NCBI GenBank assembly: GCA_965178125.1
Contig: OZ237743.1
Coordinates: forward strand, 620,001 to 684,000
Source of the DNA: Bilabrum cf. latius
Taxonomy: Eukaryota
DNA: 64,000 nt
Direction: 5' to 3'
Below the pieces are notes generated by a model. That model was not told the origin of the DNA and made no database searches. It saw only the letters and a program-made list of their open reading frames with translations. Made by a program: the position numbers and the translations under genes. Positions 12,669 through 64,000 of this stretch are shown piece after piece (position 1 is the first letter of the stretch; every line of letters begins with the position of its first letter).

Positions 12669-12740
12669 GTTCGGCTGGCACAATGGTAGCGCGCATCCTT
12701 GACACGGATGAGGTACTGGGATCGATACCCGGGTCGAATA
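12669..12740 (+). tRNA. tRNA-Val(GAC)
   Basis: 72-nt cloverleaf: acceptor GTTCGGC/GTCGAAT, D-loop AATGGTA, anticodon stem CATCC/GGATG with loop TTGACAC (GAC at 12701-12703), T-arm CTGGG-ATCGATA-CCCGG. Oligo-T follows; AT-rich stretch ~30 nt upstream. Confidence 0.85.
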
Positions 12741-40578: not shown

Positions 40579-40634
40579 TCTCGCAGTCCATATGAAACCC
40601 GTAGTATACTACGGGTTTCATATGGACTGCGAGA
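40579..40634. repeat. Perfect 56-bp palindrome at the host/virus junction
   Basis: TCTCGCAGTCCATATGAAACCCGTAGTA|TACTACGGGTTTCATATGGACTGCGAGA, centre between 40606 and 40607. Confidence 0.97.
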
Positions 40635-41343: not shown

Positions 41344-42576
41344 ATGAGTTCTACTAACACACTAGTACAAGATATCAAGGCATGGTTAGCCACATAGTAC
41401 CACAATCCCAAGACCTTGGGCAACTACAATCGCGAGTGCAACACCGTTCTCCGCGCCCTACTCCAAAAGATTGGATGCAACCAGGACGCCCCTCTATCCC
41501 AAGAACAAATTGATACCGCCATGAAACAACTCAACAGCACCTATGCTTCGATGCGATGCTACTACGCCCTGCACCACCTAACAGCCTACCTCGGATGCCA
41601 AGGCTGCCAGAGCGAGCGCTTTCACCTGCTATGCAAAACCAAAGGCGAATGGGCGCTCAAGTTTCAATCAGATCGCGAAGAGCAACCCAAAAAGGATCTG
41701 CCTCTCACCCTTTAGCAGGCTCAAGAGCGGTTAGGTGCTGTGGATGCCACTGGGCTCAAGCAGCCCGAGCAGGTGGCACTCTTGTTTCTAACCATCCTCT
41801 ACTACATATCTCCTATCAGACCATCTGCTCTGTGCCAACTTGCCATCAGCACAGATCCAACTTTCCCCAATCGAATCGATCTCGATCGCAAGGTGCTGGT
41901 GGTGGGCAGCGACAAGGGGGTGGTCATTGGCACATCCTAGGAGCGAGATATGCCCATCAACGATCGAGTGGTGGAGATTGCCAGTCTACTATCCGATGAT
42001 ACGCCCTTGTGGAATAGCGGTGCAAAGAATTTCACCAGTCGATTGGTTAAACCTTACAGCCTGAAATGGTTGGAGTGCTACGTTTCACCCCAAAATATCC
42101 GCAAAATCTGGAGCAGTCAAATGGCACGTGGGTTATCACTCGATCAACGCAAAGCACTGTGCAGCGCCATGGGGCATTCAAAGAAAACCCAGAAAACCTA
42201 CTACCAAGAGTACAGAACCAGTGAGGAATAGGAGCATCTAGATGGATGCGATCTACCTGTACTGGGATTGAAATCACCTAAACCTAAACCCAAGATCAAG
42301 ATCAAACCCAAGCAGATCTCACTACCTATAGTGGAAACAAAATCGCCTGAACCTATACTTAAGCCTATTAAACCTAAACATAACAAACAATCCACTCTAC
42401 CTGTGATCGAGATTGAAAGCGATGAAAAAATGAAAACTCAATCTCCTAACAAACCTACTCCACCTGAACCTTCGGTTCTCTTATCTAAACAAGATGGGTT
42501 GTACAACCTACAAATCAATTACAAAGGGTTATCTAGAGATCAATACAAAGCAATCATGGATTTACTTGAAATTTAA
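41344..42576 (+). CDS. Tyrosine recombinase (410 aa)
   Basis: Four track ORFs fused via TAG. SPIRPS (Arg), QNIRKIW (second Arg), AMGHSKKTQKTYY (His/Tyr); Lys/Pro-rich tail; TAA stop. Confidence 0.8.
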
Positions 42577-42938
42577 AAGAGTTCCACATTTTGTGTCTCA
42601 CTTTTTACTTGGTTTAGTACGGATTTAATACAGAAGTTCTGTGTTCCATGTTTTTTTCACAATCTCTCTCAATATTTCATTTTTCACATTTTATGGAATT
42701 TCAAATTTATCATAATATCTGTGGTTGCCAGAAAAAAGAAGGAAACATGGAACATTTCTTTTAATTTCTTTTAAATTATGGAACATAACTTAGAACAAAC
42801 TTAGAACAACTCAAAAAAACTGAGAACACACTTATAATATACTAAATATATTGGATTACTAGAGAGCAATACAAAGCTTAGATATTCTCTATGTACTTAC
42901 ACAGAGAATGCGTGATTTACGATTAAATCCCTACCAAT

Positions 42939-43625
42939 TTACTCGCTCTTGGTACAGATTCTGATTTTGATTTTGATTTTGGGTTTTGCTTTGGATTGCT
43001 GTTCGAGCTGTTGCTGGTGTTGTTGGGATCGGCGATGTCTTACTATGTTAGTACGACAAACAACAGCTCCACATTCGCAAGTGATCTTCTCGCGCTGTCG
43101 CTCGTTAATCTTATCGCGATTGGTTTTGCGGTACTATTTTTTCTGCTCTAGAATTTGATCGCGGTTGGCTTGGCGGTATCGTTTTTTCTATTCGGAAATC
43201 TTGTCGCTATTGAGTTGATTATACCTTTTTTTCTATTCAGCAATCTTATCGCTATTGAGTTGATGGTATTGTTTGGTATATTGTCTGCGCCATTCTTTCT
43301 ATGTATGTGCAATAATACCCGATGGAGTACACTAATTTATGCAAGGATTGTTTTTAATGTAGTATGCTTCACGCAGTAGGAGTTCCTGTTTTGTTGAACA
43401 CGGGTAATTTTCTACCAATTTGATCGCTACTTTATCAAATCCACGTTCTAACAACTTGAATGAGGAGTAGTTGTTCGTCTTGCCGTGTTGCCATTGTTTA
43501 AAGTGATCTTTGTGCCCATTCAATCTCCTGTTTAATGTCTTGACGGTACTGCCATAGTATGGCAATAGTACTGGTGATTCGGTACTGTAAATCATATAAA
43601 TTTTTCCTTTTGAATAATCTGGCAT
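42939..43625 (-). CDS. GIY-YIG endonuclease with basic 14-aa repeats and C-terminal Zn finger (228 aa)
   Basis: GKIYMIY...YYGST...RLNGH, ELLLREAYYI; read-through gives repeats and ITCECG...RHRRSQQH. Confidence 0.88.
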
Positions 43626-43671
43626 TACAAATTCAAAAAGTAAATCATTTTTATCTTTGGACTGACTATAG

Positions 43672-44418
43672 ATGAATCTTAAAGATCAACCAAAACTAAA
43701 AATATTGGAGCTGTTTTGCGGGACGAAGTCAATCAGCAAAGCATTGCATAAACTACTTGGTAATAGAGTGGAAATCACATCACTCGATATCGAATCAAAA
43801 TATAAACCCACCATCTGCACTGATATTATGCAATGGGATTATAAACAAGCATTCCCTGTTGGATGCTTCGACTTTCTTTGGGCATCTCCGCCGTGTACCT
43901 TTTACTCACAAGGAAAGCACATGCTCAGAGATAAAAGCAAACTCGAAGCCCAAAGATAGGAATCAGATAAGATCGTACAACGAGTGTTGCATATAATTGA
44001 TTTTTACAAACCCAAATGCTTTCTAATAGAGAACCCCTAGACTGGTGAGCTTAAAAACCGCGATGTAATTCGTGGCATACCTTTTGTTGATGCCACATAC
44101 TGTATGTACGGCTATGTGTACTCAAAGAAAACTAGATTCTGGGGCAATCAGGCTTTGATCGATCAACTTCATCTCAAAGTTTGCAACAAAAACGACCATT
44201 GCCAACACTCATCCATCACCAACAAAGGTAACCTAAAACACCATTACTCAATCGCATCTGGACCATCCAAAGGATACCGATCTCAAAAAGTTATGTGGAA
44301 CCTGATGCGGTAGATTACTCAAATGCACACTCAATCTACCACTGAGATCCTCTTTTCTATACCCCCCGATTTAACCGAAACCCTAATGAAAACTGTTATC
44401 GATTTAGTGAATTCTTAA
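43672..44418 (+). CDS. DNA cytosine-5 methyltransferase (248 aa)
   Basis: ILELFCGT (motif I), WASPPC (IV), LIENP*TG (VI), YCMYG...KKTRFW; three in-frame TAG. Confidence 0.88.
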
Positions 44419-44519
44419 AATAATTCCATTTTTTACCTTTAATCCCGTACTAAATTGATACGGATTAAATGCAAAATAATATCTGGCTAGATACTCACAC
44501 AGAGAAAATCCTGTTTTCA

Positions 44520-44681
44520 TTATCTTAGCCCAAACTTCTTGCATAATCTCTTGATCTCGGTACGGATCGCTTTGGGAGCACTAGTCTCAGCCCACCACTG
44601 GTTCAAGAAGGTTATCTCTTCAGTGTTTAACTTTCCTTTGGTAGTTTTCTTATCAAACAAGGCACTCTACTCTATTGGCAT
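44520..44681 (-). CDS. Small hypothetical protein (53 aa)
   Basis: ATG..TAA with one TAG; start context TAGGGTATATG resembles that of the recombinase. Confidence 0.3.
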
Positions 44682-44728
44682 ATACCCTACTATAGACTAC
44701 CATCCTTAAATCGTTTCTAAAAAATCGA

Positions 44729-45019
44729 TTATGTAGTATGCATAATCATCTTGGATAAAAGGCTTTTGTATTCATCCATTGATACCCATTTCATTGGTTT
44801 GCGAATTGGAAAGTATTCCCCCTCTTCTAGCTTATCCACTTTGTAAATCTTATGCAGTGAACTATTTTTATAGTATTTACCCTATTTAATTGATTTTAGA
44901 GTTGCTACACTAATTTTTAACTCAGGATACTTTTCCTTAATCAACTCAACCCCCATCTGAGCATTTCGAACTATGTATTGATCCCCCTTTATACTCAACT
45001 TAAAATTATGATTTACCAT
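44729..45019 (-). CDS. Hypothetical protein (96 aa)
   Basis: ATG..TAA with one TAG; upstream AAAATGATTTAAA motif. Confidence 0.6.
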
Positions 45020-45228
45020 CTTACTATATAATATCAAAAAATGTTTAAATCATTTTCCGAAATTCGATGATGATTCATTTATTTGGTTATGATCAGAAAA
45101 AAACGAAAAAATGTACAGAATAATCGCAAAATGTCAAAAATGAGAGATTTTGAGATTACCGTTACTGAAAAAAAAAAATTATTAAAAAAAAAACTCCTAA
45201 GGGCAACTCAAAATCTCTAACCAAATAT

Positions 45229-45338
45229 TCCTATCATAAACCAAGTATTTCCTATCATAAAAACTCTAAATTCCTATCATACTTCTGATCATAAAAATTA
45301 CTTACTACCAAATAATCCTATCATAAATCTTATCATAA
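45229..45338. repeat. Iteron-like TCCTATCATA repeats
   Basis: Exact copies start at 45229, 45250, 45272 and 45316, plus variants at ~45285 and ~45329. Confidence 0.85.
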
Positions 45339-45429
45339 CCAAATAAAATAATATAACCAGAATTGATTCTACATTATATATTCGATTTTATAAAAATGAA
45401 TTAAAACAATTTCTATGATTATAATATAA

Positions 45430-47925
45430 ATGAATACGATCCAATCTGATTTGATGTTAAAACAATTAGTGCCTTGCGAAACTACAGGATTCAAAGTAAA
45501 AACCAAGATGAAATTTCCAATGGAAAAGGTCGAACTAGTTAAAAAGTACCTCAAGTTTATCATGCCCAAAATCATTCACACCTCAACCAAACAATAGGAT
45601 GTTCAAGCACAAACAACTATGGTTGCTAACGCATGTAACTAGTGGCTTTCGGGATCAAAAGATAGTTCGATTCCTCTTACTTTCCATGTTAAAAACAACT
45701 TCGGCAGACTGGTCTCCAAAAAAGTAATAACTCCTGTTCAAATTATTCGTGGCATTCGGCACTATTTGTTTGAAAACCTATACACCGATCTCGATATTGC
45801 CAATGCCCACATTGAGTTTGCTTTCCAATTATACCCTGTTTTAATGGGTGGAGTTGTTCCTAAAGGCATTGAGTACATTGTTAAGAATCGCAAAGCCATC
45901 TTTCAACCATTCATGGATGAACACAAACTAACCAAGGATCAATGCAAAACTTTCGTATTTACTGTTTGTTATAAAGGTTCACTGGAAAAAACCCTTAGAA
46001 AACTTGGATTTGGTGGAGTTGCCGATCTCAAAAAAAATAGCCGATGGGCATACAATAGAATTTAGGAAGCGGCTTCCGAGTTTGAAACCCTTGCCAAGGC
46101 GGTTAAACAGCACATGGGTGATACTTGGAAAATTGTTCATTGTTCTGATAAATCCATTCAACAAAATAGATAGGATGTGAGCAAGTTTAGCATTGTGATG
46201 CAACACATTGAACACAAAATCACACTTGTGATTGCCGATTTCTTAAAACGCAAATATAATCTCGATGTTGCGGATTTCCAATTCGATGGTGTGTTTGTTG
46301 ATAGCATGAATCATAAACTAATCGAATCAATTATTCCTGAAATCGAATAGCACATTACCAAAATTACTGGTTTTAAACTCAAATTAACCGTTAAACCAAT
46401 CGATGGCACTATGGTTCGAGAAATCGTAGAAAAACTACAAACCGAAATCAGTGATGATTCCCCCGAGTTATTAGAAGGATCTGAAGTGGATAGCGATTTA
46501 GAGGCATCCGAAGTGTTTTGGAAAATCTACAAGAATCAAGTCGTAATTACCGAATCATCTATCTATTGTCTCGATAAATCCACACATCTCTACCAGCACT
46601 ACAGCAAATTCAATAAATTTCACCCTCTTTTTAATATGGTTCAAACCCTACGCTTAACTCGTAACAACAAACCTTACTCAGCCAACAACACGAACGCCAA
46701 AAACATTGTTGCCACCATTCTGGGAGATACCTCATTAATTGTCAATGATGTTGAATTTATCGATCAGATCAATCAATCCACCAAAGGATTACTGTTTTTT
46801 ACCGATAAAGTATGGAATTTCGCCACTCAAAAATTCGAGGAGTTTGAAAACCGATTTACACTATGTAACACTGGATACCCTGCTCCTATAGATGCATTTA
46901 AACAACTAAATATTGAAAAGGATAACTACCAATCAATCCAGTACCTCAAGAAAACCATTTTTAACGCCTTCGAAACCCAAGAAGAGGTTGATTACAACTT
47001 ATTTATTTTAGCACGAGCTCTTGCCGGACATGTTGAGGATAAATATTTTTCCTGTTGGGTTGGTGAGCGCGATTGTGGTAAGGGCACATTTATGGATATC
47101 ATCAAGTGTGCCATTGGAAACTATGCAAGGGATTCAGTTCCTCCTATTTGCTCTGATGTTTCCAACAGTGATGTTGCCCAACGAAACAGATTTGCTGTAA
47201 CGAGCAAGATAAATACTGGTAGATTGTGTTTTACCAATGAAGCAGGGATTGCCAAAAAATCCAATTCAACCATTACCTTGGATGGTGAGGTAATTAAGAG
47301 TGTGGTTGCAAGTGGCGGTGATGTTTTCTAGACTCGTAGAATGTTTGAAAACGAACAATCAATGAAAAACAACTGCACCTTTTTCATGCTGTTTAACTCT
47401 TATCCAAAAGCCAATCCATACGATGCCTTTCAAACTTGTTTGCCTGTTATTTTTCCAAAGAAATTCAGCAAGAAAGATCCGGATGTGGTTGGATAGGAGG
47501 ATTGCATCACAGATCTAAGAGAAAAAATTAGATAGCCTGAAATCTATATTGCGTTCTTATGGTGTTTGTTACACGCTTACAAACCCATTCCGGCACGTAA
47601 ATATCCTCGACCAGAATCCTTTTCTAAATCGATAATTGAGGTTGATTCTAAACCCTCTACTCGATTTGAAGTGTTTAAAAAATGCTTTCACAGAGATGAA
47701 TCATCCGTCTTGTCTTGGAACGAAATACGGGAAGTATTTGATCAATACATTAAAATCTCTCCATAGGCACTCCGTAAATTCCTAGAAAAACAAAAGTGCT
47801 CTATTCTTAGAACCTCTTACAAAGGTAAAACCCTTAAAATAGTCAAAGGAGTTGAGTTACGGGATCAATCCGAACCACAAGATGAAGTTAAACAGAGTTC
47901 CGCCCCCCGCTACGGTAATAAATAA
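45430..47925 (+). CDS. TVpol (PolA-like primase-polymerase) fused to D5-like SF3 helicase (831 aa)
   Basis: FGRL...IRHYLF...YTDLDIANAH, KTFVFTVCYKG, QHIE, FQFDGVF, then GERDCGKGT, FTNE, GGDVF*TR; at least nine in-frame TAG; TAA stop. Confidence 0.85.
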
Positions 47926-48072
47926 ATTTATTCCCTTCGGTTAAGGAAACAAGTTTCAATAATTACGTTCAGTCAGAGCTAAAGCTCTTCCCTCTCTCCA
48001 TTCCTTTTCTCGCTAGTCGCTCCAAAAGTCAAGGTGAGCCTCTTCATACTGCTACTTCATATAACTGCTTTA

Positions 48073-48265
48073 TCCTTCTAATTATAGAAAATCAATTATA
48101 TATAAAACTCTATACGATGACCATATCCACAAATTGCGTATTAGTATATGTATTATTTAGCAAAACGTGGATGTAGCCCTCTTGTGAAGGTGTTATGGGA
48201 CTCTAGCCATTTTCTAGCCAAAAGTTCCATCACTTTATGGGACTCCATTATTCAACCTTCTAAAC
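48073..48265 (+). repeat. Dispersed non-coding repeat, copy 1
   Basis: Core ATACGATG.C.ATATCCACAAATTGCGTA...TAGCAAAACGTGGATG...AAAAGTTCCATC, shared with ~58696-58910 and (inverted) ~63195-63406. Confidence 0.9.
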
Positions 48266-48346
48266 TACCTTCATTATACCCCCTTATCCTCGCTTATACC
48301 TTCACAAATGGAACAAACGCGCTTTTATTTTTAAAATGTTATAGAG

Positions 48347-48364
48347 CGTTTAAATTGACTTAAA
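48347..48364 (+). promoter_or_regulatory. Putative early promoter GTTTAAAWTGACTTAAA; other copies at 49457, 61941 and 62546
   Basis: Four copies, each ending 29-30 nt before an ATG. Confidence 0.7.
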
Positions 48365-48392
48365 AAATATATTTATTATAGGTATATACAGA

Positions 48393-49412
48393 ATGGAATT
48401 ATTAAAATGGGAAAATGGAACCTTGAAAGCTACACAACCAAAAGAATATTATGAACGAAATGGATTTTAGGTTAATTTTGAAGGGAAAACCTATCATATA
48501 GCAATGGATAAAGATTATATAAGATGGTTTTTGAAGGACTATAAACCTTATGAAATAATAACAACATTCATAACAGATATGAGTGAAGTATTCAATGGAT
48601 AGGATAAATTTAATGAACCTTTGAATACTTGGGATGTTTCAAATGTTAAGGATATGAGTTTAATGTTTCAAAGTTGTAGAAGCTTTAATCAACCATTGAG
48701 CAATTGGGATGTTTCTAAGGTTGAAAAAATGTCGTCTATGTTCTATTTTTGTTCTAAATTCAATCAATCATTGAACGATTGGAATGTTAGTAATGTTAGG
48801 GATATGAGTGGTATGTTTGGTTCTTGTTCAAGATTCAATCAATCATTAACAAACTGGAATGTTTCTAACGTTGAAAATATGTCCTCTATGTTTAATGGAT
48901 GTTGGAACTTCAATCAACCATTAAATAATTGGGATGTTTCTAAGGTTGAAAAAATGTCGTCTATGTTCTATCATTCTGAATTCAATCAATCATTGAACGA
49001 TTGGAATGTTAGTAATGTTAGGGATATGAGTGGTATGTTTGGTTCTTGTTCAAGATTCAATCAACCATTGGGTAATTGGGATGTTTCTAACGTTGAATAT
49101 ATATCCTCTATGTTTAATGGATGTTAGAACTTCAATCAACCATTGGATAATTGGGATGTTTCCAATGTCTAGAGTAAGTTTTAGATGTTAAAAGATTGTG
49201 AAAGTTTCAATCATTTAGAGAACGGTATTAAGGGTATAAGAATTGATTATTCTACAACATTGATACCGTTGTTAGAAAGACGAAAACATAAAACCATTAA
49301 AAAAACAAAGAAATATAGAGAGGAATTAATTGCTAAAGCGTGGCACCCTTCAAGATTAGATTGGGTATTGGATAACGAGGAGCGAGACGAGATAGAGGAT
49401 AATTTTAATTAA
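48393..49412 (+). CDS. DUF285/BspA-like repeat protein 1 (339 aa)
   Basis: About 25-aa repeats WDVSNVxDMSxMFxxCxxFNQPLxx; C-terminal EELIAKAWHPSR; TAG read-through. Confidence 0.9.
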
Positions 49413-49501
49413 TAGAATTTTAATAATATTAATGATTATTTAATATTATAGTGTGAGTTTAAAAAGGCTTAAATAATATATTTATTATAGGTATATACAG
49501 A

Positions 49502-50299
49502 ATGGAAGTTTTAAAATGGGAAAATGGAACCTTGAAAGCTACAAAACCAAAAGAATATTATTTTAGAAAAGATAATTATATTGTGAAATTTGAAGGTAAA
49601 ACATATTACGTAGCTAAAGATACAGATTTTCTTCTTCACGCATTGTAGTTTTTGAAACCTGAATTATTAGTAACAACATTTATTACGAATATGTTAAACC
49701 TATTTGATAATATGATAATTGAATCACCAATAAATTCATGGGATGTTTCAAATGTTAAAGATATGACCGATATGTTTTATGGGTGTCATTCGTTTAATCA
49801 ACCTTTAAATAACTGGGATGTTTCAAATGTTGAAGATATGGGCGGTATGTTTAATGAGTGTCATTCGTTTAACCAACCATTGAATAATTGGAATGTTTCA
49901 AATGTTGAAGATATGAGTGAAATGTTTAATGATTGCCATTCATTTAACCAACCATTGAATAATTGGAACGTTTCAAATGTTAAAGATATGTGCGGAATGT
50001 TTTATGATTGCCATTCACTAAATCAACCTTTAAATAACTGGGATGTTTCAAATGTTGTAGATATGGAATGTATGTTTTCTAATTGTTTTAGTTTTAATCA
50101 TTTGGAGAATGGAATTAAGGATGAACGAATTGATTATTCCACGACATTAATCCCATCATTAGAAGAGCGGAAAGATGAAACAATTGAACAAACTAAAAAA
50201 ATCAAAGAAGAATTAATTTCTAGAGCGTGGCACCCTTCAAGATTAGATTGGGTATTGGATAACGAGGAGCGAGACGAGATAGAGGATAATTTTAATTAA
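49502..50299 (+). CDS. DUF285/BspA-like repeat protein 2 (265 aa), paralogue of the previous gene
   Basis: Same repeats; near-identical N-terminus and identical last ~75 nt. Confidence 0.9.
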
Positions 50300-50340
50300 G
50301 TTTTATTATAATAATTATTTTATTTTTAATTATTATAGAT

Positions 50341-50688
50341 ATGGTTTATATTGTATCATTAGCGTGGGGTAGTGAATGTTATCATACACACTGGGTTAAA
50401 AAGTTTAATAATAAGGAAGAAGCACAAAAGCTTTATACTGACACTTTAAAAGACCAAGCGAAGAGAGTTGTATGGAGTGATAATTGGAAAGAAGAATATA
50501 AAAAGGAAGCAGAAGGTCAAGTTGAAAGTTTTAATGATGACAACGGAACCGATTTCAAACTATTGAAAGAAGAAGAAATTGATAACCTTACTAATAGTGA
50601 ATTAGAAGAGTATATAGAATTATCGTTGATGTATGCTGAAGAATATGATGATTCAAATGAATGGTTTGATATTGAGTTTTTAGAATAA
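50341..50688 (+). CDS. Acidic hypothetical protein (115 aa)
   Basis: Clean ATG..TAA ORF flanked by AT-rich spacers. Confidence 0.75.
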   Translation: MVYIVSLAWGSECYHTHWVKKFNNKEEAQKLYTDTLKDQAKRVVWSDNWKEEYKKEAEGQVESFNDDNGTDFKLLKEEEIDNLTNSELEEYIELSLMYAEEYDDSNEWFDIEFLE

Positions 50689-50735
50689 ATTTTTGAATTT
50701 TAATAATACTATTATTATTATTATTAATATATAGT

Positions 50736-51152
50736 TTAATCCTTGGGTAAGATAAAGTCATCTATAGCCTTTTTGATGATGTCATCCTTCTATTTCTTTA
50801 TTGATTTCTCAATGGCTTCCTTCTCTTTTTTAACCAATAAATCTATGGCTACGGTATCATTTAAGTCTTCACTTAGGCATTCAACATTTTCTTCATTTAG
50901 CTTGTGTATTATTCTAAATGGTTGAACGAAATATGATATATAATCAATTTCTTCAAATTCACTTAATACTCTTTTTTTAAGTCGTTCATTACAATCTGGA
51001 GGGACACGAAGGTCATCAAGTTGAAAATGCTTTAACATTGATGGTTTGTGCTTCTCAACATAAATATATACGATTGACATAAAAGTGGAGATGCTTTTAT
51101 TCTGGAATACCTTTTTAACGTTGACACTTGATAACAGGAACTTAACGAACAT
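50736..51152 (-). CDS. Hypothetical protein (138 aa)
   Basis: Track ORF extended through TAG 50790 to TAA 50736. Confidence 0.7.
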
Positions 51153-51253
51153 ATTATAATGTAGCCCAATATTTTATTTTAATTTATTAAACCCGTTTTA
51201 TAAAATTCTATAGTTTAAAAAAAATAAAAAAAATATCTAGTAATTATATATAA

Positions 51254-51625
51254 ATGGATAAATTACAAAAAGTGATTAATACCCGCTCAAAGTTAAAGAA
51301 TGAATTTCTTGATATTGTAGAAGACTTTAAGAAGACCAATCGTGAATTAGAACAAAAGTTAAAGCAACTAAAAATAAAAGAGACAGAATTAAAAAATAAA
51401 GTGAATAGTAAATTAACCGCTCTTAATGTGGAATATAAAGAGGTGAGCAAAAAGAAAGCAGAAGCTATAGCCCCTTATATGAAAACTTTAAAAGCATTAA
51501 AAGGAAGGATGAACGGACTCACTAAGAAAGAAAAATTAAAGCTGGTTGATATCCATTAGGAGATAAGAGACACCAAGGAGCACATTAAAACGAATGAAGC
51601 TATTAATAGGCTTTTTAATTCGTGA
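51254..51625 (+). CDS. Coiled-coil hypothetical protein (123 aa)
   Basis: Lys/Glu/Leu heptad-like pattern; extends through TAG 51557 to TGA. Confidence 0.7.
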
Positions 51626-51665
51626 ATAATTAATTTATAAATATTAAAATCAATTAATATATATA

Positions 51666-52823
51666 ATGAGTAAGAGAGGAAAGAAAAAAGATAATGATAT
51701 TAATGAATCAAGTTTTGGATTTAATACGAAGTCTATCACGAACGATTTAATGAAGCCGATAAAGAAACCGAAAGGATTGAATTATGTTAAATATTATAAA
51801 CCTACTAAAGAGGGGCTTATCCAATAGGCTGATTTATTGTATCTCCCTTACGCTACCAAGAACGATTCAAAATATTTATTAGTTGTGATAGATACTAGCG
51901 GATTAGCGTTAGATTTTGAAGAGTTAAAGGATAGAGGGGCGGAGGATGTGATAAAAGCTTTTCAAAAAATCTATAAAAGAAATTATTTAATGAAACCTAA
52001 AATGATACGAACAGATAAAGGGGGAGAATTTGATAATGAATCATTTAAAGAATATCTAAAGAAGAATAAGATAGAGCATATATTTTCAAGAGTGAAGCGT
52101 AAATCGTAGATGGCTTTGGTGGAGAGATTGAATGAGGAAATAGGGAGAGCTATATTTTATTATTTGAATTCATAGGAGATAAGAACGGGGACAACTATCA
52201 CGAACTGGAGACATTTAATACCAAAATTGAGGGAGATATTAAACGAGCGTTATAAAACAAGATAGGAAATGTTGAATAAGAAAAGGGAGAATCTACCATA
52301 TATACCGCCTAGATGTTAGGGTGAAGTATGTGATGTATTAAATGAGGGTGAAATGGTAAGAATAGGATTAGATTATCCTAGAAGTATAGAAGGGATAAAG
52401 GAGACCGGAGCATTTAGGGCGGGAGATATTAAATATAGCGTAAAGCCTTATAAAATTGAAAGAGTAATAATAAAACCAGATAACCCCCCATTATATAAAA
52501 TTGAGGGCATACCCTATACATACTTTAATAGAGATTAGTTGTTATTAGCATCTAAACCATACGAGAATAAAGCACAAGATATATTTATAATTGAAAAATT
52601 GATAAGAAAGAATAAAAATAATACATACAGGGTTAAATGGAAAGATTCATATGTTGATGAGGCTACTAAAAGAAAATATTAGAATGATATAGGTAAAATA
52701 ATAAAGAGAAGAAAGAATCAAGAGGGACAAGATGAATATTTAATTCAATGGAAGATAACAACGGAGCCGGCTAAAAATATATCAAAAACTCTAAAGGATA
52801 ATTTTAATAATAAGACTAAATAA
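51666..52823 (+). CDS. Retroviral-type (rve) DDE integrase with C-terminal chromodomain-like region (385 aa)
   Basis: IQ*ADLLYL, YLLVVID, IRTDKGGEF, ALVERLN; tail FIIEKLI...YRVKWK and EYLIQWK...EPAKNI. Confidence 0.92.
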
Positions 52824-53522: not shown

Positions 53523-55601
53523 TTATTTTAATAATCTTAGTTTTTCAAAGTGTTGATATAAGATTTGTTTTACCTTGTCCTTCACATTATGATTACCTTT
53601 ACCACCGGCTATATTAAAATATTCTTGTTCAATTTGTCCTCCTTTATGCTTGCCACATCCACAACTACCGCCCCTGTTCTATGTTTTTATTTTCTAATCA
53701 ATAATTAAATTAATAGCTTTCATTAACATATTATAAGGGTCTTTATTTCCGAAACCTTGAGCTGGTGGTGAATATGTCCATTGAGGCTTCCCGCTTAATT
53801 CATATCCCGTATCGTTTAGTCTTGATTTTGCTAATGTTCTATCACTTCTGGTTGCTCTTCCTTCTGTATTTGCTCTAGCTACTAAAGACCTAACAGCATC
53901 AGTTGATAAATTAGGTTGTAAGACTCCGGCTTTAAGCCTTCGTATAATATATTTTAAAGTGTTAATTGTTGGGCTGGCGTCTGTTGGATTTATTCCTCTT
54001 GCTTTTAACTATGATAATATTTCATTTTTATTGCCTTTAGCATTTATTGATTGTCCTATTGATTTGGCTATTTCATCATCTGTTTTCTGTGGTTCTTGTG
54101 GTTCTGCTGGTTCTTGTGCTGGTTCTGCTGGTTGTGCTTGTTGTGCTGGTTCTACGGCTTCTCCATCTCTTGGTTCTTCATCTGGGGCTCCCCTCCGTTC
54201 TCTAGCTTGTCTTTCTTTTTCTTCTTGTTGTCTTTGTGCTTCATCTCGTTCTGCCTGTGCTTGTCTTTGTCTGAATTGAACTTCTGTAAGTTGTCTTCCA
54301 AATTCATCTGTAATAGGTTCTCCATCTTCATCTACTGCCATCGCTTCACCTTTTCCTCTGTCTTGACCTGCGGGGGGTGCTTGTGGTTGTGAGCCTGTTT
54401 TTCCTGTTAAATAACTGATACCATCCATAACCGATTGTCCTAAAGAACCAAATGTGCTTTGTTGTTGTTCTGGTGATTGTCCTTGTTCTTGTTCTGGTGA
54501 TTGTCCTTGTGGTTCTGGTGATGCTTGTAAGAATCCACTAGGTGGAACTGGTGCGGGTGATACTTTTGAAAACTAGCCTGATAAATTTCTACTGGCGTTC
54601 TCCCCTTCTTCTTCTTGTCCTGATGATTGTGATGCCTCTTGTTCTTGTGCTTTTTGTTTAAGTTCTGATAATTTCTTCTAAGCACTTTTTATAAAATCAA
54701 CTTTAGACCGTCCTTTTACACCTTTAACATTTGACTCTCTAAGTATTTTTGCTAGTTCGGTTTTCTTTGGTGCTTTTCTACTACTTGAAGGATTGGCGTT
54801 TGCTACTCTTTCAAGTGCTTCAATTTGTTCTTGTAGTTCTGGGCTTAATGCTTCTTGTGGTGTTGGAGGGGGTTTTGGTCTTGGTTCTGGTGGCGGTTGC
54901 GGGTTATCTGGTTCAGGTCTATCAGGTTGCGGGTCATCTCTTTGCTATTGTTGAACGGCTTCAGGAGGATTTAAAACATCCTATAAAGCATTAACAGCGT
55001 CATCAACTTTTGTTAATTGTGAAACATTCTATCCTTGGGGGGTTTTCGTGATTCCAGCTTGTCGTAAAGCGTTTCGTATTTGAACTGCTTTTAATCCTCT
55101 CATATCGCTTGGTAATTGTTCTAATACTGCGTCCCGTTGTGCTTTAGTGGTTGTAAATAATCTCATATTAATATTTTTAATTCCATCAAATACCTTTTTC
55201 TTATCGCTTGCTGGTCCTACTACCTACCTTACATTAATATTATTAATGGTATCTACAACCTATCTTTTTAATTTATCCGGTAAATCTGGATTTCTATTTA
55301 TAAATGATTGTAAATTTTCTATTTGATAAATTGGTAATTCTTTTTTAGCGTTCATAGTCTTAATATTTTTAATAATATTTTCAATTCCTTGTTGTTGTTG
55401 TTGTCTTTCAATTCTAACATCAATAGGAACATAATTAGCACGAAGGAAAGCATCATCTTTTAGGGTTTTTCTTCTGGCTTCTGCTTCATCTTCTTCTTGC
55501 TATATCATTAATCTAACTTGTGGGTCATTTTGTATCCTAAGTTGATTAGACCGTTTCTACATAATACCCTTCAGTAAATCATTAATTGTATTGTTTGACA
55601 T
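53523..55601 (-). CDS. Large low-complexity protein, putative virion core/internal protein (692 aa)
   Basis: ATG 55601 is in frame with track ORF 54009..54428; Pro/Gln/Glu-rich middle; C-terminal RGG, KGG and IAGG motifs; TAA stop. Confidence 0.7.
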
Positions 55602-56125: not shown

Positions 56126-56941
56126 ATGAAAATTAATGAATTGACACAAGCTTATTTTAATGAATACGAGAACGATATATTTGATGAGGTGAATTTTAAG
56201 AAGGGGGCTAATTTATTTTTAAATGGTTCGTATGCTATTCCTTATTATTCCTTGTTTGCTAGTGATATAGATTTATATTAGAGGGTAGAGCCTGAATTTA
56301 TAAATAGTTTAATAAGATTTGTAAAGGTTTTTATAAGTTAGGTTAATTTTATTGAGGTTAAAGCTGGTAATAAAAAATACAAGACCATAAAAGCATTCAT
56401 ATCTACACCCGTTAAAACCATTTATAAATAGATATTTAGCGGAGATAAACCATACTTAAAAATTGATTTTTGGGCTTTTGATGGAAAATTTATAGATGAA
56501 ATAAGCATAATTTATCATATAAGTGATTATGAAATAGATTAGGACGAGGTAAAAGATGGATTAATAAGAGATGTAGATAAATATTTTGGTTCTAATAATT
56601 TTAAAGTATTAAAACGATTGAAGGATTTATTTAAATTAAGAGGTGAGAAGAGGAATGAAAAAAGAGTCAATGATTTAATTGATAGGGAAGCATTAGGATA
56701 TTTATATTCCATAAGAATGCGATTAGAAAGTATGCTAAGAATAAAAGGACATCAAAGCGAGAAGTCAAAATCATTTCAAAGCCTAAAAGGACTAATGAGA
56801 AAAGCATTAGGAAATGTGGAAATAATAAAACAATTTTCAAAGTATTCTAAAGCAAATATTAATAAGATAATATCGTGGATTGACCAATACATAAATAGGA
56901 AAACACGGGCGGAAATTAAAAATATAATTATGTCTCTATAA
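56126..56941 (+). CDS. Nucleotidyltransferase-fold-like protein upstream of the ATPase (271 aa)
   Basis: LNGSY...ASDIDL (GS..DxD pattern) and LKIDF; N-terminal half visible only with TAG read-through. Confidence 0.65.
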
Positions 56942-57033
56942 CTTTTTTTGTGAGGAAGGATAGAAGAAGGAACCAACTTAATATTTTAAACCCGTGTGAA
57001 TAAATGGTTTATTTTATTTTATTATTATATATA

Positions 57034-58104
57034 ATGCTATCTTTACAATATACGGAAAATAGCCATATTGTAGCTATTCAAAAATACAAAAAAACACAAT
57101 AGAACCGGTTTATTTATTACGACCCGAACGCTAAAGATATTCAACACGTCAAAGCGGAAGAGATAACAGATGATGTTTTAAAATCTTATTACGGAGAAAG
57201 CCGAGTAAGATATAACGTTGATAAGGACAAGAAAAGGGAACAATTACATAAACTATTACAAGATGAATATATACGGTCAGTTTAGGAATTTGCGATTAAA
57301 GATAATAGTCAATATTTACCTTTTCCTATGCTCTTTCCATAGGGGCGTGAATATGTGCGATTATTTGGTAAGAGTGGAAGCGGGAAAAGTCATTTAGCTT
57401 TACATTATATAAGGATGTATAGAGGATTAAAATATAAAAATATGTATGTTATATCACCAATTCAAGACCCTAAATATAAAAGAGAAGGCGCGACCTTCAT
57501 TGATATAGATGATTTGGTTAAAGAGAATGAAAACACTTTATATAAGGAAAAAATGGCTTATTATAAAAAAATGAAATTAGAATTTAAATATAAGAAATCT
57601 TCTTTGATGAAATCTAAACCTTTAGATGTTGTTATTGAAGCTGAAAGAAAGATAGAGGATTTGAAACCTGAGAAAGATTTAATAGAAAAAGGTTTTAAAT
57701 TAAATGTTGAGTTTTTTAAAAAATTGACCGCTGAACCTAATTTATTTATTCTGGATGATTACGAAGGCTTTAAAAAAAGGAACCAGAAAGCAAAGGCTTA
57801 TTTTTTATTGGAAATCCTAGCAACTACAGGAAGGCACACAGCAAGTAGCGTTTTAGACATCACCCACAAAATAAGCGACGGTATGAAGACACGAACCATT
57901 ATGAACGAAATTACAACCCATATCATTTATAAAACAATTACAGCTAAAAGTTTAAAATATATTTTAGAAACAGTCTTAAGTTTTGACGCTCCTACTAGAA
58001 AACGAATTAAAAAAACCCTTCATTCTCTCCCTCTCTTTGGTTATGTTGCTATTAATGTTGATAATAATTATGTAGTTAGCACAAAAAAAATATTTCTCTA
58101 TTGA
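57034..58104 (+). CDS. FtsK-HerA/A32-type genome packaging ATPase (356 aa)
   Basis: GKSGSGKS, FILDDYE, TTGRH, ITH; TGA stop. Confidence 0.92.
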
Positions 58105-58112
58105 ATATATAA

Positions 58113-58688
58113 ATGAACATAAACGACTTAAATAGACTAGTCCAAACACCGTTATCTCCTTTAGAAATTCAAAAATTAGGTGTAGCACATTTGAATTACA
58201 AACCTAGAATAGTTATTTACGATGATATTATTAAATAGACCTCATCTATTGAACATATTTTTGATGGTAATGACGGCGTAATTATTTATTATCCTAATAA
58301 AAAGACGGGACTAAATAGCACATACGGTCATTATTGCGCTCTTACTTAGGACGAAAATAATAAAACTATTTATTTTTTTGATAGCTATGGAGAAAAACCC
58401 GACCAATAGAAACCATTTATTAATAGAAACCAATTGTATCAAGGAGAAGGAGAAGAGAACACACTAGTTAAATATTTATTGACGTAGAAATTACACGGCT
58501 GGAAAATTGACTATAATAATAAACCTATTTAGAGTTATGCTAATTAGAGTGCTACTTGTGGAAGATGGGCATTATTAAGAACTGTTTTCTCATTCTTAAC
58601 TAATGATTAGTTTGTAAATGAAATGTTTAGAATATCCAAAATTATGGCTCTTAGTCCTGATTAGTTAGTGGCGTTGCTTCTACATTGA
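58113..58688 (+). CDS. Adenain-like cysteine maturation protease (191 aa); absent from the ORF track
   Basis: GHYCAL (His), YFFDSYG (Asp), YNNKPI*S (Gln as TAG 58530-58532), ATCGRW (Cys). Confidence 0.93.
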
Positions 58689-58695
58689 ATACCCC

Positions 58696-58910
58696 GCCCT
58701 TCTAATAAAAGGGCTAGAATAAAATAATAAAATATGATTATCTCTAAAATAAAATCCATACGATGGCTATATCCACAAATTGCGTATATATTATAGTGTT
58801 TTCTAGCAAAACGTGGATGTAGGGCCTCTTGTGAAGGTGAAATGAAGATATAAGCCCTTTTATTTAGAAAAGTTCCATCGTTTTAGAAGGGCTATTTTTC
58901 ATCCATCTAA
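58696..58910 (+). repeat. Dispersed non-coding repeat, copy 2
   Basis: See copy 1; contains the 9-bp inverted pair GCCCTTCTA (58696) and TAGAAGGGC (58884). Confidence 0.9.
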
Positions 58911-59024
58911 ATTCAATCAAACTTTTAAATATATTGGTAAAAGTGAAGGGTAAAAATCAAGGTGAAATATTAGATAAGGTTTATTAATAAATATTTATTT
59001 GTATAGCTTTAATATATAAATAAA

Positions 59025-61939: not shown

Positions 61940-61986
61940 ACGTTTAAAATGACTTAAATATATATTAACTAACTAATATATATCAA

Positions 61987-62277
61987 ATGGAAAAGTTAAA
62001 TAAAATTATTGAGAATCTACCGCCTACACACGATGTCTATATCCAGACAGAAATTGATGGAGTTTTGACCGTAATTTTTACAAACAGTGATTAGGTAAAA
62101 GAAATCACCAATCAATTAAAAAAAGACAGTAGAGAGAAGCTATTATATCTCAAATATTCAACCTATAAATGTATTATATAGACGAGGAATAAGTATAGAG
62201 ATGATGACATTGTACTTCATTATTTGGCTGTTTGTCTATTAGAAAAGAAACCCATTCAATTATATAAGGCAAGATAA
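61987..62277 (+). CDS. Hypothetical protein (96 aa)
   Basis: ATG..TAA with two TAG; preceded by the conserved promoter motif. Confidence 0.65.
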
Positions 62278-62328
62278 TCATTTTATTATTTATTTATACA
62301 TATTAAATAAATATATGACCTGTGAATG

Positions 62329-62441
62329 ATACTTTCCAAAGTAGGTTCATACTTTTCGAAGTTGGTTCACACTTTTCAAAGTAGGTTCATACTTTCCGAA
62401 GTTGGTTCATACTTTTCAAAGTAGGTTCATACTTTCCAAAG
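62329..62441. repeat. Non-coding 20-bp tandem repeat (about 5.6 units)
   Basis: Unit GTWGGTTCAYACTTTYCRAA, with alternating variants giving a 40-bp super-period. Confidence 0.95.
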
Positions 62442-62592
62442 AACTATTTAACCGGTCTAATTAATTAATATTTTAATAATATTAATTATTATAATCACTT
62501 ATATCTATAGTGTCTATTTTTAAGCCCCTAATTTATAATATAACGCGTTTAAAATGACTTAAAGATTATATTATATAGATATTATATAGAGA

Positions 62593-63144
62593 ATGTGTAA
62601 AAAGTGTATTGAACAAATATAGGAACATACCGGTAATATAAAGTGGATGGACATTTAGAAGAAATTAATTCATATTGGCTCAACCGTTATTCAAGGTGAT
62701 AAATTGGGTAATTGTATTTGTGGGCACGAGATACGAACCGAGCACGAAATAGAGCATACCCCTAGTGGATATGTTTTTAAAGTGGGTTCTAGTTGTATAA
62801 AGTAGATGATAAAGGATAAAGAAAATCAAATTCGTAAAAAATGTTTATATTAGTGGTGTGGAATATGTAAAAAAGATGTCGCAAGAGACCGATATAATAA
62901 GCACTGTGAAGGAATAAGACATATTGAGTTAGAAAAGAAATAGAAAAAGTTAGAGGAAAAAAAGAGGAATGAAAAAAGATGTGATGTGTGTCTTTGTAAA
63001 ATGCTTAGAGGTGATTGGAGGACAACCTGTAAGTCTTGTTATACGATTACAAAATATGGAAAAAAGGCGTGTAAAAAATGCGGAGTGTCTAGAATTAAAG
63101 ATATGAAATATTCAATTTGTTATAAATGTCATATTGGTAAATAA
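62593..63144 (+). CDS. Multi-Zn-finger protein (183 aa); absent from the ORF track
   Basis: CICGHEI...VGSSCI, CGIC...KHCEGIRH, four further CxxC pairs; several TAG. Confidence 0.8.
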
Positions 63145-63194
63145 TAATTAGATATTAATGATAAAATTAATATTTAACATATTGATGATGGGAG

Positions 63195-63406
63195 TTAGAA
63201 GGGGCTATATTACAACCTTCTAAAGTGATGGAACTTTTGGGCTAGAAATACGATATCAATCAAATCATCTTCATAAAACTAATCCATCCACGTTTTGCTA
63301 AATAATACATATACTAATACGCAATTTGTGGATATAGCCATCGTATGGATTTTATTATAGAGATAACCATATATATTTTAATATTCTAGCCCTTTTATTA
63401 GATGGT
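63195..63406 (-). repeat. Dispersed non-coding repeat, copy 3 (inverted)
   Basis: Reverse complement of copies 1 and 2. Confidence 0.9.
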
Positions 63407-63466
63407 CAAGGTGTTCAACTATTAATAAAGATATCATATTTAATATTAGTATAAATATTAAATTAT

Positions 63467-64000
63467 TTAGAAATCTTTTAATGCTTCTTGAAGTTGCTCT
63501 CTAAAGGCTTCTTCATCATCATCTTCATCATCTGGTTTCTCAACATTTCTATTATTATCACGTTTTTGTTTCTTCTTGTTCCTCTTCTTAGTCTTTTTCT
63601 TGGGTCTTATTGGTTCTTCTTCTTCTTCTGGTTCCTCTACTTCATCGGGTATAAATTGACCGTATGACAAATTAATATATTTGATGGGTTTGTCCTTCTT
63701 TTTAATTGTCATTATGGGGTCTTTACTCTCAAAATCTCCTGTATAATAAATCGGGGGCTCACTGGAAAACATATAAATGTATGGAACAAATGGATTTTTG
63801 GCGCTGTCGGTCTTCATATCAGGGGTTAGATACAAACCATTCAATTCGTCTTCATCCACCAGTTCAAATTTATCTTCTACGGTATTATTAAAAAATATCC
63901 CTTTAAAAGTTTTAAAGAAGAATTGATTAATATATTTCTTGGCTTTCTTTATGGCTCCCTCTTCTAAAAGTTCCATTAATTCGCTTGGTTCATAACTCTA
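63467..64000 (-). CDS. Hypothetical viral protein, 5' end possibly beyond the window
   Basis: Frame open (via TAG) to the window edge; acidic/basic C-terminus; TAA stop. Confidence 0.65.

Follow-up and report, generated by a model that had tools for sequence, protein, structure and literature searches.

In a 64,000-nt stretch of Bilabrum cf. latius DNA (hereafter the window; assembly GCA_965178125.1, contig OZ237743.1, positions 620,001 to 684,000 of the forward strand), GC content per kb is ~0.55-0.75 up to ~41 kb and 0.26-0.41 from there to the end. The AT-rich part begins at ~41.3 kb within GC-rich, eukaryote-like DNA (the host part has ~60% GC) and runs beyond the end of the window. It contains virophage-type capsid genes, an rve-family integrase, a probable tyrosine recombinase and a replicase gene (Table 1). 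We give about even chances to the reading that this stretch, which extends from ~41.3 kb past 64 kb, represents a single endogenous virophage of mosaic origin in the nuclear DNA of a protist, and that its replication and recombination block was acquired separately. The observations that carry this reading are the gene content of the element, a compositional break that separates a left block (41.3-47.9 kb) from a right block (48.4 kb onward), and a replicase cassette shared with a second, giant-virus-like genome.

Gene content and genetic code of the element

Under the standard genetic code the AT-rich part shows short open reading frames (ORFs) only and no gene of the element is open, a point left unsaid in an earlier, sequence-only reading of this DNA. 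The leftmost gene, for instance, is a single frame broken by four TAG codons and by nothing else. With TAG taken as a sense codon, 22 compact ORFs emerge that cover 19.4 of the 22.7 kb of the element; together they hold 90 in-frame TAG codons and end in TAA (19 ORFs) or TGA (3 ORFs). ORFs of 729-1869 residues on the host side also open solely when TAG is read through. Among these recoded host genes are those for a protein kinase, an amidase (Pfam, 2.5e-67), a SpoU methylase and a PAN-domain protein, with 2-12 in-frame TAG codons each, and TAA and TGA stay stops in host and element genes. Since TAG is needed as a sense codon in the ORFs of both, the element and its host share a code.

Two comparisons bear on the amino acid that TAG encodes. 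Three of the seven TAG codons in the rve integrase gene fall on conserved glutamine columns, namely TAG54 (Q in 10 of 11 relatives), TAG148 (9 of 11) and TAG291 (11 of 11). While this column evidence leans on the codes of the relatives, a comparison of the replicase gene with its sister gene (described below) is independent of any code. At 13 aligned sites TAG is present in one of the two genes only, and the partner codon is CAA or CAG at nine of them; AAG, AGT, GAG and TTA occur once each at the other four. Because TAG exchanges with CAA or CAG at these nine sites, it stands for glutamine, and this in the host, the virophage and the giant-virus-like contigs alike. The sole tRNA gene found in the window is a tRNA-Val(GAC) at 12669-12740 (+), and no TAG-reading tRNA is present in the window.

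A code shared in this way by host, virophage and giant-virus-like DNA is unusual. Literature searches, with supplementary files outside their coverage, returned no published virophage with reassigned-stop genes; such genes are present here. Here and below, statements on cited papers refer to the parts of their texts that were available. A metagenomic survey (PMC6905037) went no further than to infer possible reassignment from an ochre-suppressor tRNA, and a catalogue of giant viruses (PMC13524828) reports that alternative codes improve gene calls for some metagenomic genomes and that every giant-virus isolate so far comes from a standard-code host. Surveys may miss elements of the present kind, because standard gene callers would shred all of their genes.

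The right block carries a virophage-type morphogenesis module. Its penton protein matches Pfam V18-19 (Sputnik V18/19) at 5.3e-7 and 29.2 bits (cut-off 27), and the penton gene lies directly upstream of that for the major capsid protein (MCP). The match of the MCP itself to MCP_V20_C is weak (E 0.0037, below cut-off). The protein aligns end to end with 15 relatives, however, and 14 of the 16 aligned members match MCP_V20_C (best 1.5e-17), with four matching Sputnik_MCP_1st. Among 1.84 billion representatives the MCP has 55 relatives (E<=1e-3), the best full-length one at 32% identity. It had no match in the GenBank phage collection, and neither the MCP nor its relatives P0024 and P0023 had a confirmed IMG/VR locus. 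The virophage belongs to a sparsely sampled lineage. The predicted packaging ATPase, putatively of the FtsK/HerA type, matches the PHROG 'terminase large subunit' (1.1e-6; no match in Pfam) and has the Walker A motif GKSGSGKS, and the neighboring probable protease, which is without a family match, was named from its position and a His/Cys motif. Upstream of the ATPase gene, orf271 holds the position that MV14 occupies in mavirus-like elements (PMC8547959).

The rve integrase has a weak C-terminal match to Chromo (1.9e-4, below cut-off), a domain precomputed as PF00385 for 5 of the 11 aligned relatives. Exact copies of several right-block proteins are found on public contigs: the rve integrase and orf271 on one of 8405 bp, orf96 and orf183 on one of 12842 bp. 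The two DUF285 genes are composed of 75-nt coding repeats. The 692-residue ORF (53523-55601, minus strand) has a P/Q/E-rich low-complexity center, 12 TAG codons and no family, and 54-55 kb is the GC peak of the right block (0.41). No ORF between 41.3 and 64 kb matches a polymerase family; those of 48.4-64 kb match neither a polymerase nor a helicase family, and 11 of them are without any family. A promoter-like motif, CGTTTAAA(A/T)TGACTTAAA, is located at 48347-48367, 49456-49476, 61941-61961 and 62546-62566, 37-45 nt upstream of four right-block genes (as a variant before the second DUF285 gene), and does not occur in the left block. CTATAG and TATA-rich starts were considered as promoter motifs common to both blocks and were rejected as too frequent in AT-rich DNA to count.

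In the left block, the product of the first gene is probably a tyrosine recombinase, a guess made at the level of motifs. The order and spacing of R159, K191, R253, H278 and Y287 fit a tyrosine recombinase, as does the predicted order of helices and hairpin, and the order and spacing resemble those of Cre. A K/P-rich, AT-rich tail follows from residue 297. The protein had zero matches in Pfam, PHROGs, NCBIfam and the PDB sequences. Its AlphaFold model is unusable, with a predicted local distance difference test score (pLDDT) of 36, and hhalign gave a probability of 0.09 against a profile of Cre, lambda Int and P2 Int. A relative at 82% identity is represented on many public contigs, of up to 5025 bp, by recurring standard-code fragments, including a 97-residue piece on nine JGI contigs and another on six ENA contigs, and this recurrence suggests an abundant or multi-copy element. 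The family match of the GIY-YIG nuclease was obtained with a stop-to-stop fragment, the whole ORF having no Pfam match at E<=0.01; the C-terminal half of the protein consists of four 45-nt coding repeats (43100-43279) and then a Cys/His cluster.

Much of this inventory agrees with the sequence-only reading. The GIY-YIG nuclease, the methyltransferase, the SF3 helicase and the rve integrase lie where it had placed them, in ORFs that are whole once TAG is sense. The rve and morphogenesis genes do stand to the right of 48.1 kb, and the right part holds no recognizable polymerase within the window. The label 'recombinase', which it applied without qualification, is retained here in the weaker form given above.

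Table 1. Coordinates of the features of the AT-rich element and its spacer sequences, in positions of the window (aa, amino acids; C/(C+T), share of C-ending codons among two-fold NNY codons)
Feature	Position	Strand	Remarks
Probable tyrosine recombinase, 410 aa	41344..42576	+	4 in-frame TAG; motif order and spacing only
GIY-YIG nuclease, 228 aa	42939..43625	-	Homing-endonuclease-like; Pfam GIY-YIG 6.3e-9 (stop-to-stop fragment)
C5 cytosine DNA methyltransferase, 248 aa	43672..44418	+	Pfam DNA_methylase 9.1e-9, 35.6 bits (cut-off 22)
orf102	44729..45037	-	Family-less; right-type codon usage, C/(C+T) 0.24 (n=25)
Iteron array, 5 x TCCTATCATAA	45229..45338	+	2 copies with one mismatch; just upstream of replicase
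Replicase, 831 aa	45430..47925	+	9 in-frame TAG; C-terminal half a P4/D5-type superfamily 3 (SF3) helicase
Junction spacer between blocks	47926..48392		GC 0.34; holds repeat copy 1
Dispersed ~200-bp repeat, copy 1	~48050-48270	+	
Tandem pair of DUF285 genes (leucine-rich-repeat-like; 339 and 265 aa)	48393..50299	+	Pfam DUF285 2.6e-80 and 4.6e-56
Small ORFs of 115 aa (+), 138 aa (-) and 123 aa (+)	50341..51625	mixed	Family-less
rve-family integrase, 385 aa	51666..52823	+	7 in-frame TAG; Pfam rve 8.9e-12, 45.6 bits (cut-off 32.6)
Three ORFs, 205, 692 and 129 aa	52860..56068	-	Family-less
orf271, predicted packaging ATPase (366 aa), probable cysteine protease (191 aa)	56126..58688	+	orf271 family-less
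Dispersed ~200-bp repeat, copy 2	58686..58925	+	Begins at protease stop codon
Penton, 317 aa; major capsid protein, 629 aa	59025..61939	+	Virophage type; 9 TAG in major capsid protein gene
orf96, 20-nt tandem array, orf183	61987..63144	+	orf183 Cys-rich
Non-coding tandem array, 20-nt x 5.7	62329-62441		Or 40-nt x 2.8 at 94% matches; between orf96 and orf183
Dispersed ~200-bp repeat, copy 3	63180..63420	-	Inverted relative to copies 1 and 2
orf169	63467..63976	-	Acidic, family-less; right-type codon usage

Compositional break and the replicase cassette

The two blocks differ in composition as well as in gene content. Pooled GC content at third codon positions (GC3) is 0.41 for the five left genes, 0.25 for the 17 right genes and 0.66 for the host; the corresponding values of C/(C+T), again for two-fold NNY codons, are 0.44 (n=457), 0.21 (n=1255) and 0.67, and those of the share of TAG among glutamine codons 0.19, 0.31 and 0.15. 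The left block is shifted toward the host on all three measures, with the recombinase gene shifted most and the replicase gene least among its large genes. Gene by gene, GC3 separates the five left from the 17 right genes (Mann-Whitney p=3.8e-5): all four large left genes have values of 0.37-0.52, against 0.17-0.33 on the right, and the recombinase gene, at 0.52, is the most GC-rich and most host-like of the element. In codon usage the right block comes close to the giant-virus-like contigs, with GC3 at 0.25 and 0.23, respectively, and TAG making up 0.31 of the glutamine codons in both; this likeness is indirect evidence for a possible dependence of virophage replication on a co-infecting giant virus. 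The break is sharp and falls between the replicase stop codon (47925) and the start of the next gene (48393). Both contrasts drawn in the sequence-only reading, C-ending codons being commoner at 41.3-47.9 kb and the DNA more AT-rich from ~48 kb, are borne out by this codon-usage analysis and by the sliding GC profile, in which 1-kb values are 0.30-0.39 over 42-48 kb and 0.28-0.31 over 48-53 kb.

The replicase gene closes the left block. Its product matches DUF5906 (2.5e-6, 28.5 bits; cut-off 27.6), the PHROG DNA primase (5e-13, residues 508-823) and, under that model's cut-off, NCBIfam primase_Cterm (6.7e-9). In the GenBank phage collection (tblastn) its only matches were Staphylococcus phage primase/helicases at 25-26% identity, and it had no confirmed IMG/VR locus. 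The N-terminal 480-490 residues are without a significant family match, the one Pfam match being MCPsignal (E 0.032, 14.5 bits; cut-off 34.6), and the structure model of this part is unusable (pLDDT 37). The name TVpol, which the sequence-only reading had assigned, is for this part a guess from motifs. Upstream of the gene, TCCTATCATAA has five matches within the array and none elsewhere in the window, where 0.84 are expected and none of 100 shuffles reaches five. We consider this array a candidate, and the probable, replication origin adjoining the replicase gene.

A search of a collection of 5.8 billion clusters returned one relative of the replicase, at 78% identity, with cluster members on JGI contigs. 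A public contig with the sister replicase is 15004 bp long. Two of the metagenome contigs were returned by our scan, L001 (1-4417) and L002 (1-4817), which overlap by 441 bp at 100% and together represent ~8.8 kb of compact, AT-rich (GC 0.30-0.36), TAG-recoded DNA. DNA similarity between the window and this sister locus is confined to 45384-47886 (78.8% over 2546 columns, blastn against L001), and the region common to both loci comprises the replicase ORF and 46 bp upstream, plus the TCCTATCATAA iterons, of which two copies lie directly 3' of the sister replicase on the opposite strand (L001 2734-2792). Upstream of the sister gene are genes for a 436-residue family-less protein, TFIIS (1.7e-9), a ubiquitin-E2 (1.6e-48), a family-less ORF and a cyclic-nucleotide phosphodiesterase (2e-29); three family-less ORFs lie downstream. 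Neither contig carries recombinase, nuclease, methylase, DUF285, rve or capsid genes. By its gene complement, this setting looks like a giant virus and not a virophage, and the giant virus would appear to use the same changed code as the host in the window.

The sister replicase also differs from its surroundings, with a GC3 of 0.38 and a C/(C+T) of 0.38, compared with 0.23 and 0.165 for its neighbors. Since the gene forms a composition island in the window and in the sister locus, the foreign composition belongs to the cassette itself, in the one home as in the other.

Given this relative, the whole AT-rich region could be the margin of a giant-virus fragment, integrated and itself bearing a provirophage, with the left block belonging to the giant-virus mobilome. 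The nearest replicase relative does lie among TFIIS, UBC-E2 and phosphodiesterase genes on compact, AT-rich, TAG-recoded contigs, and the AT-rich DNA of the window extends off its end. Giant viruses, moreover, commonly encode GIY-YIG nucleases and repeat proteins of the DUF285 type, which counts in the same direction. We nevertheless consider this explanation quite improbable: there is no giant-virus hallmark gene in 41.3-48 kb or in 63.4-64 kb, host-type DNA directly adjoins the left block at ~41.3 kb, and the composition of that block is unlike that of the giant-virus-like contig's own genes.

One element or two

The composition of the blocks and the presence of a helicase-gene relative in another setting support two modules with different histories. 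That these modules now form a single mosaic virophage is favored by the continuous coding layout, by the same code throughout the 22 ORFs and by a junction (47.9-48.4 kb) at which no gene is broken. No other replicase is recognizable between 48.4 and 64 kb, and the left gene accordingly takes the position of the replication module. The left block, moreover, has no ends of its own in the form of terminal or direct repeats. No inverted repeat was found to bracket 41.3-48.0 kb in a repeat search of the window, no inverted or direct repeat of at least 11 nt joins 40.6-41.42 kb to 47.9-48.42, 58.65-59.03 or 63.1-64.0 kb, and the 740 bp at the left end have no inverted copy anywhere in the window. 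Nor is the left block a conserved unit, because the sister locus shares only 45384-47886 with it and the neighboring genes differ. A perfect 56-bp palindrome, whose 28-nt arms adjoin without a spacer, is located at 40579-40634, where GC content is intermediate, 710 bp upstream of the first gene of the element; it could mark the true left boundary.

Several points weigh against a single mosaic element. The compositional shift of all four large left genes would fit a block that arrived, or persists, as an element in its own right. The right part has an array of its own (62329-62441), a possible second origin-like site that may be served by a replicase beyond 64 kb; an iteron-like repeat in each half, as the sequence-only reading had noted, is thus present. 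Inverted copies of the ~200-bp repeat stand on either side of 48.08-63.38 kb. Near-identical public copies exist for 4 of the 17 right proteins (rve, orf271, orf96 and orf183) and for none of the five left ones, a difference that is not significant. These copies were found by exact look-up for 3 of 21 window proteins and by homology search for rve, and the split depends on assembly breaks; the public assemblies are fragmented, since one contig begins inside the capsid gene. This contig, of 12842 bp, would reach ~9.8 kb beyond the end of the window if it is colinear. Finally, the right terminus, any terminal inverted repeats (TIRs) and a target duplication fall outside the window, and the recombinase and the N-terminal domain of the replicase remain putative.

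These points lend themselves to an explanation by two neighbors, in which a capsid-less integrative replicon of ~6.6-7.4 kb, made up of recombinase, nuclease, methylase, replicase and iterons, stands beside a complete virophage that has its left end at ~48.0-48.1 kb and its own replicase beyond 64 kb, each partner with its own integrase. The position of the break exactly at 47925/48393, the separate arrays, the occurrence of the replicase cassette without virophage genes in the sister locus and the restriction of exact public copies to right-block proteins would all be expected of such a tandem pair, and tandem or nested integrations are known (10.64898/2026.07.28.741278, 10.64898/2026.10.13.758929). 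We hold it to be possible but doubtful. No terminal or att-like repeats surround 41.3-48.0 kb, and the sister locus shares just the replicase, 46 bp upstream and the iterons, not the block as a unit. Further, no replicase is seen in 15.6 kb of the right part; the arms of the 48.08/63.38-kb inverted pair are 79% alike with fuzzy ends, and an internal third copy is nearer to the right copy (86%); and the split in public copies is, as stated, without significance. On the DNA within the window, two adjacent elements are indistinguishable from a chimeric virophage.

The ~200-bp repeat is also the basis for a nested arrangement, in which a virophage at ~48.08-63.42 kb, bounded by the inverted repeats, would interrupt a larger element of left type, which would continue from 63.42 kb on. 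Between the inverted repeats (I1 and I4) lie 15.1 kb that include rve and all four genes of the capsid module, and AT-rich DNA goes on past 63.42 kb. In copy 3, 118 nt are 79% complementary to copy 1 and 88 nt are 86% complementary to copy 2. The arms, however, are only 74-79% alike, and their fuzzy ends leave no definable target duplication. In addition, a third, direct copy is internal (58.7 kb), and each of the three copies is found shortly past the stop codon of a gene and in its orientation, as a dispersed intergenic element would be rather than termini. Past the outer repeat, orf169 has the codon usage of the right block (GC3 0.32; C/(C+T) 0.22, n=50). We therefore regard nesting as very improbable. 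Of the alternatives framed in the sequence-only reading, a chimera or nested or adjacent elements, the idea of two modules of different history is upheld by composition and by the sister locus, while insertion of one into the other is disfavored, in view of the right-type codon usage of orf169 and of the lack of any repeat shared by the left end with 47.9-48.4 or 63.1-64.0 kb.

The repeat itself contains invariant blocks that include an imperfect hairpin, ATCCAC...GTGGAT, and could act as a signal for 3' ends, be a small mobile sequence that inserted here, or serve as a hotspot of recombination. As RNA it has a consensus fold in which 1 of 40 pairs shows a compensatory change, a number that is uninformative with three copies; an Rfam scan of 40-64 kb gave two chance-level matches only. 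Of words sampled from 43.5-53.5 kb, 87-90% occur in four sequencing runs from one study; these runs may be the source sample and are not independent. An assembly error takes what probability the explanations above leave over.

If the element is indeed a single mosaic, the right part, from 48.4 kb on, would be the virophage proper, with an rve integrase whose chromodomain may serve entry into host chromatin. The left 6.6 kb would be a replication and recombination block of separate descent, made up of the replicase with its upstream region and TCCTATCATAA iterons, the nuclease, the methyltransferase and the probable recombinase. As the only visible source of a replicase, this block would now replicate the virophage, with the iterons as its presumed origin, and the GIY-YIG nuclease may have helped the block to move. 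The two integrases could be directed at different targets, the host chromosome and giant-virus DNA, as the papers cited here propose. The replicase gene, which also sits in a giant-virus-like genome, would behave as a semi-autonomous cassette. These suggestions can be extended, tentatively, to a three-tier system of protist, virophage and giant virus that all read UAG as glutamine, with the self-contained replicase cassette (upstream region, primase/SF3-helicase gene and TCCTATCATAA iterons), in its composition unlike either virus and nearer to the host, moving between the viral genomes as a fourth-tier parasite, perhaps aided by the neighboring GIY-YIG nuclease; we think this broader picture less likely to be right than wrong.

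Comparison with known systems

Sputnik-type virophages reportedly combine a tyrosine integrase with a TVpol-S3H protein. The present element resembles them in its penton, which matches V18/19, in a capsid family that matches V20 models, in the C-terminal SF3 helicase and in its putative tyrosine recombinase. It differs from them in also having an rve integrase, and the TVpol and recombinase assignments are below significance in all tests. Transpovirons are said to be ~7-kb plasmid-like companions of mimiviruses. The left block is like them in being a capsid-less replication and integration unit of ~7 kb that is able to reside in giant-virus DNA. Unlike transpovirons, it lacks bounding TIRs and has a probable recombinase, a GIY-YIG nuclease, a methylase and an SF3-type replicase in place of a family B DNA polymerase that uses protein priming (pPolB) and a DDE transposase (10.64898/2026.10.13.758929).

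A close match in architecture is to the mid-GC endogenous mavirus-like elements (EMALEs; types 5-7) of Cafeteria burkhardae (Hackl et al. 2021, PMC8547959), all of which carry rve, a tyrosine recombinase and a long primase/helicase and lack pPolB. The rule behind the sequence-only reading, that tyrosine recombinases go with TVpol and rve with PolB, is outdated in view of these elements. Like them, the present element is integrated and AT-richer than its host, joins an rve integrase with a chromodomain to a probable tyrosine recombinase and has a long primase/helicase that replaces pPolB; one EMALE type has a DNA methylase. The predicted order ATPase-protease-penton-MCP, with a family-less gene just upstream of the ATPase gene, is also the same. 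For the EMALEs, the authors suggest that the recombinase may serve integration into giant-virus DNA. Here, on the other hand, rve lies mid-element instead of close to one end, the left block stands out as an island in composition and TAG means glutamine in all genes. The MCP of the present element is also very distant (best full-length relative at 32%, 55 relatives), and the likeness to the EMALEs is one of description.

Comparable combinations are reported elsewhere. In the metagenomic survey mentioned above (PMC6905037), integrases or recombinases, methylases and primase/helicases are among the common virophage families. Some virophages of Halocafeteria seosinensis carry both rve and a tyrosine recombinase (Haro et al., 10.64898/2026.07.28.741278); some have two replication genes, which the authors read as ongoing replacement, and nested and tandem layouts were recognized there by GC content. 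That host has 47% GC, with no code change mentioned in the available part of the preprint, compared with ~60% GC and a recoded host here, and the likeness is again one of description. An architecture in which a virophage has two integrases, and a primase-helicase in place of PolB, has therefore already been published and is not new, and our finding leaves the picture of virophage mosaicism unchanged.

What is new is a replicase cassette common to a virophage and a giant-virus-like genome at 79% DNA identity, which provides a dated, concrete case of mosaic origin. According to a recent preprint, replication modules of the Polisuviricotina are mobile, frequently lie close to endonuclease genes and enter giant-virus genomes (Barth, Ha and Aylward, 10.64898/2026.10.13.758929). 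As with these modules, and with the extra genes of Bodo saltans virus that join an archaeo-eukaryotic primase to SF3, the replicase-SF3 gene described here appears to move alone between small DNA viruses and giant-virus genomes, in many cases next to an endonuclease gene and in some without flanking repeats. Going beyond that preprint, the present case consists of a concrete and recent pair with 79% DNA identity that has the 46 bp upstream, the iteron and the composition island in common, a pair that makes its phylogeny-based proposal of mobile modules testable.

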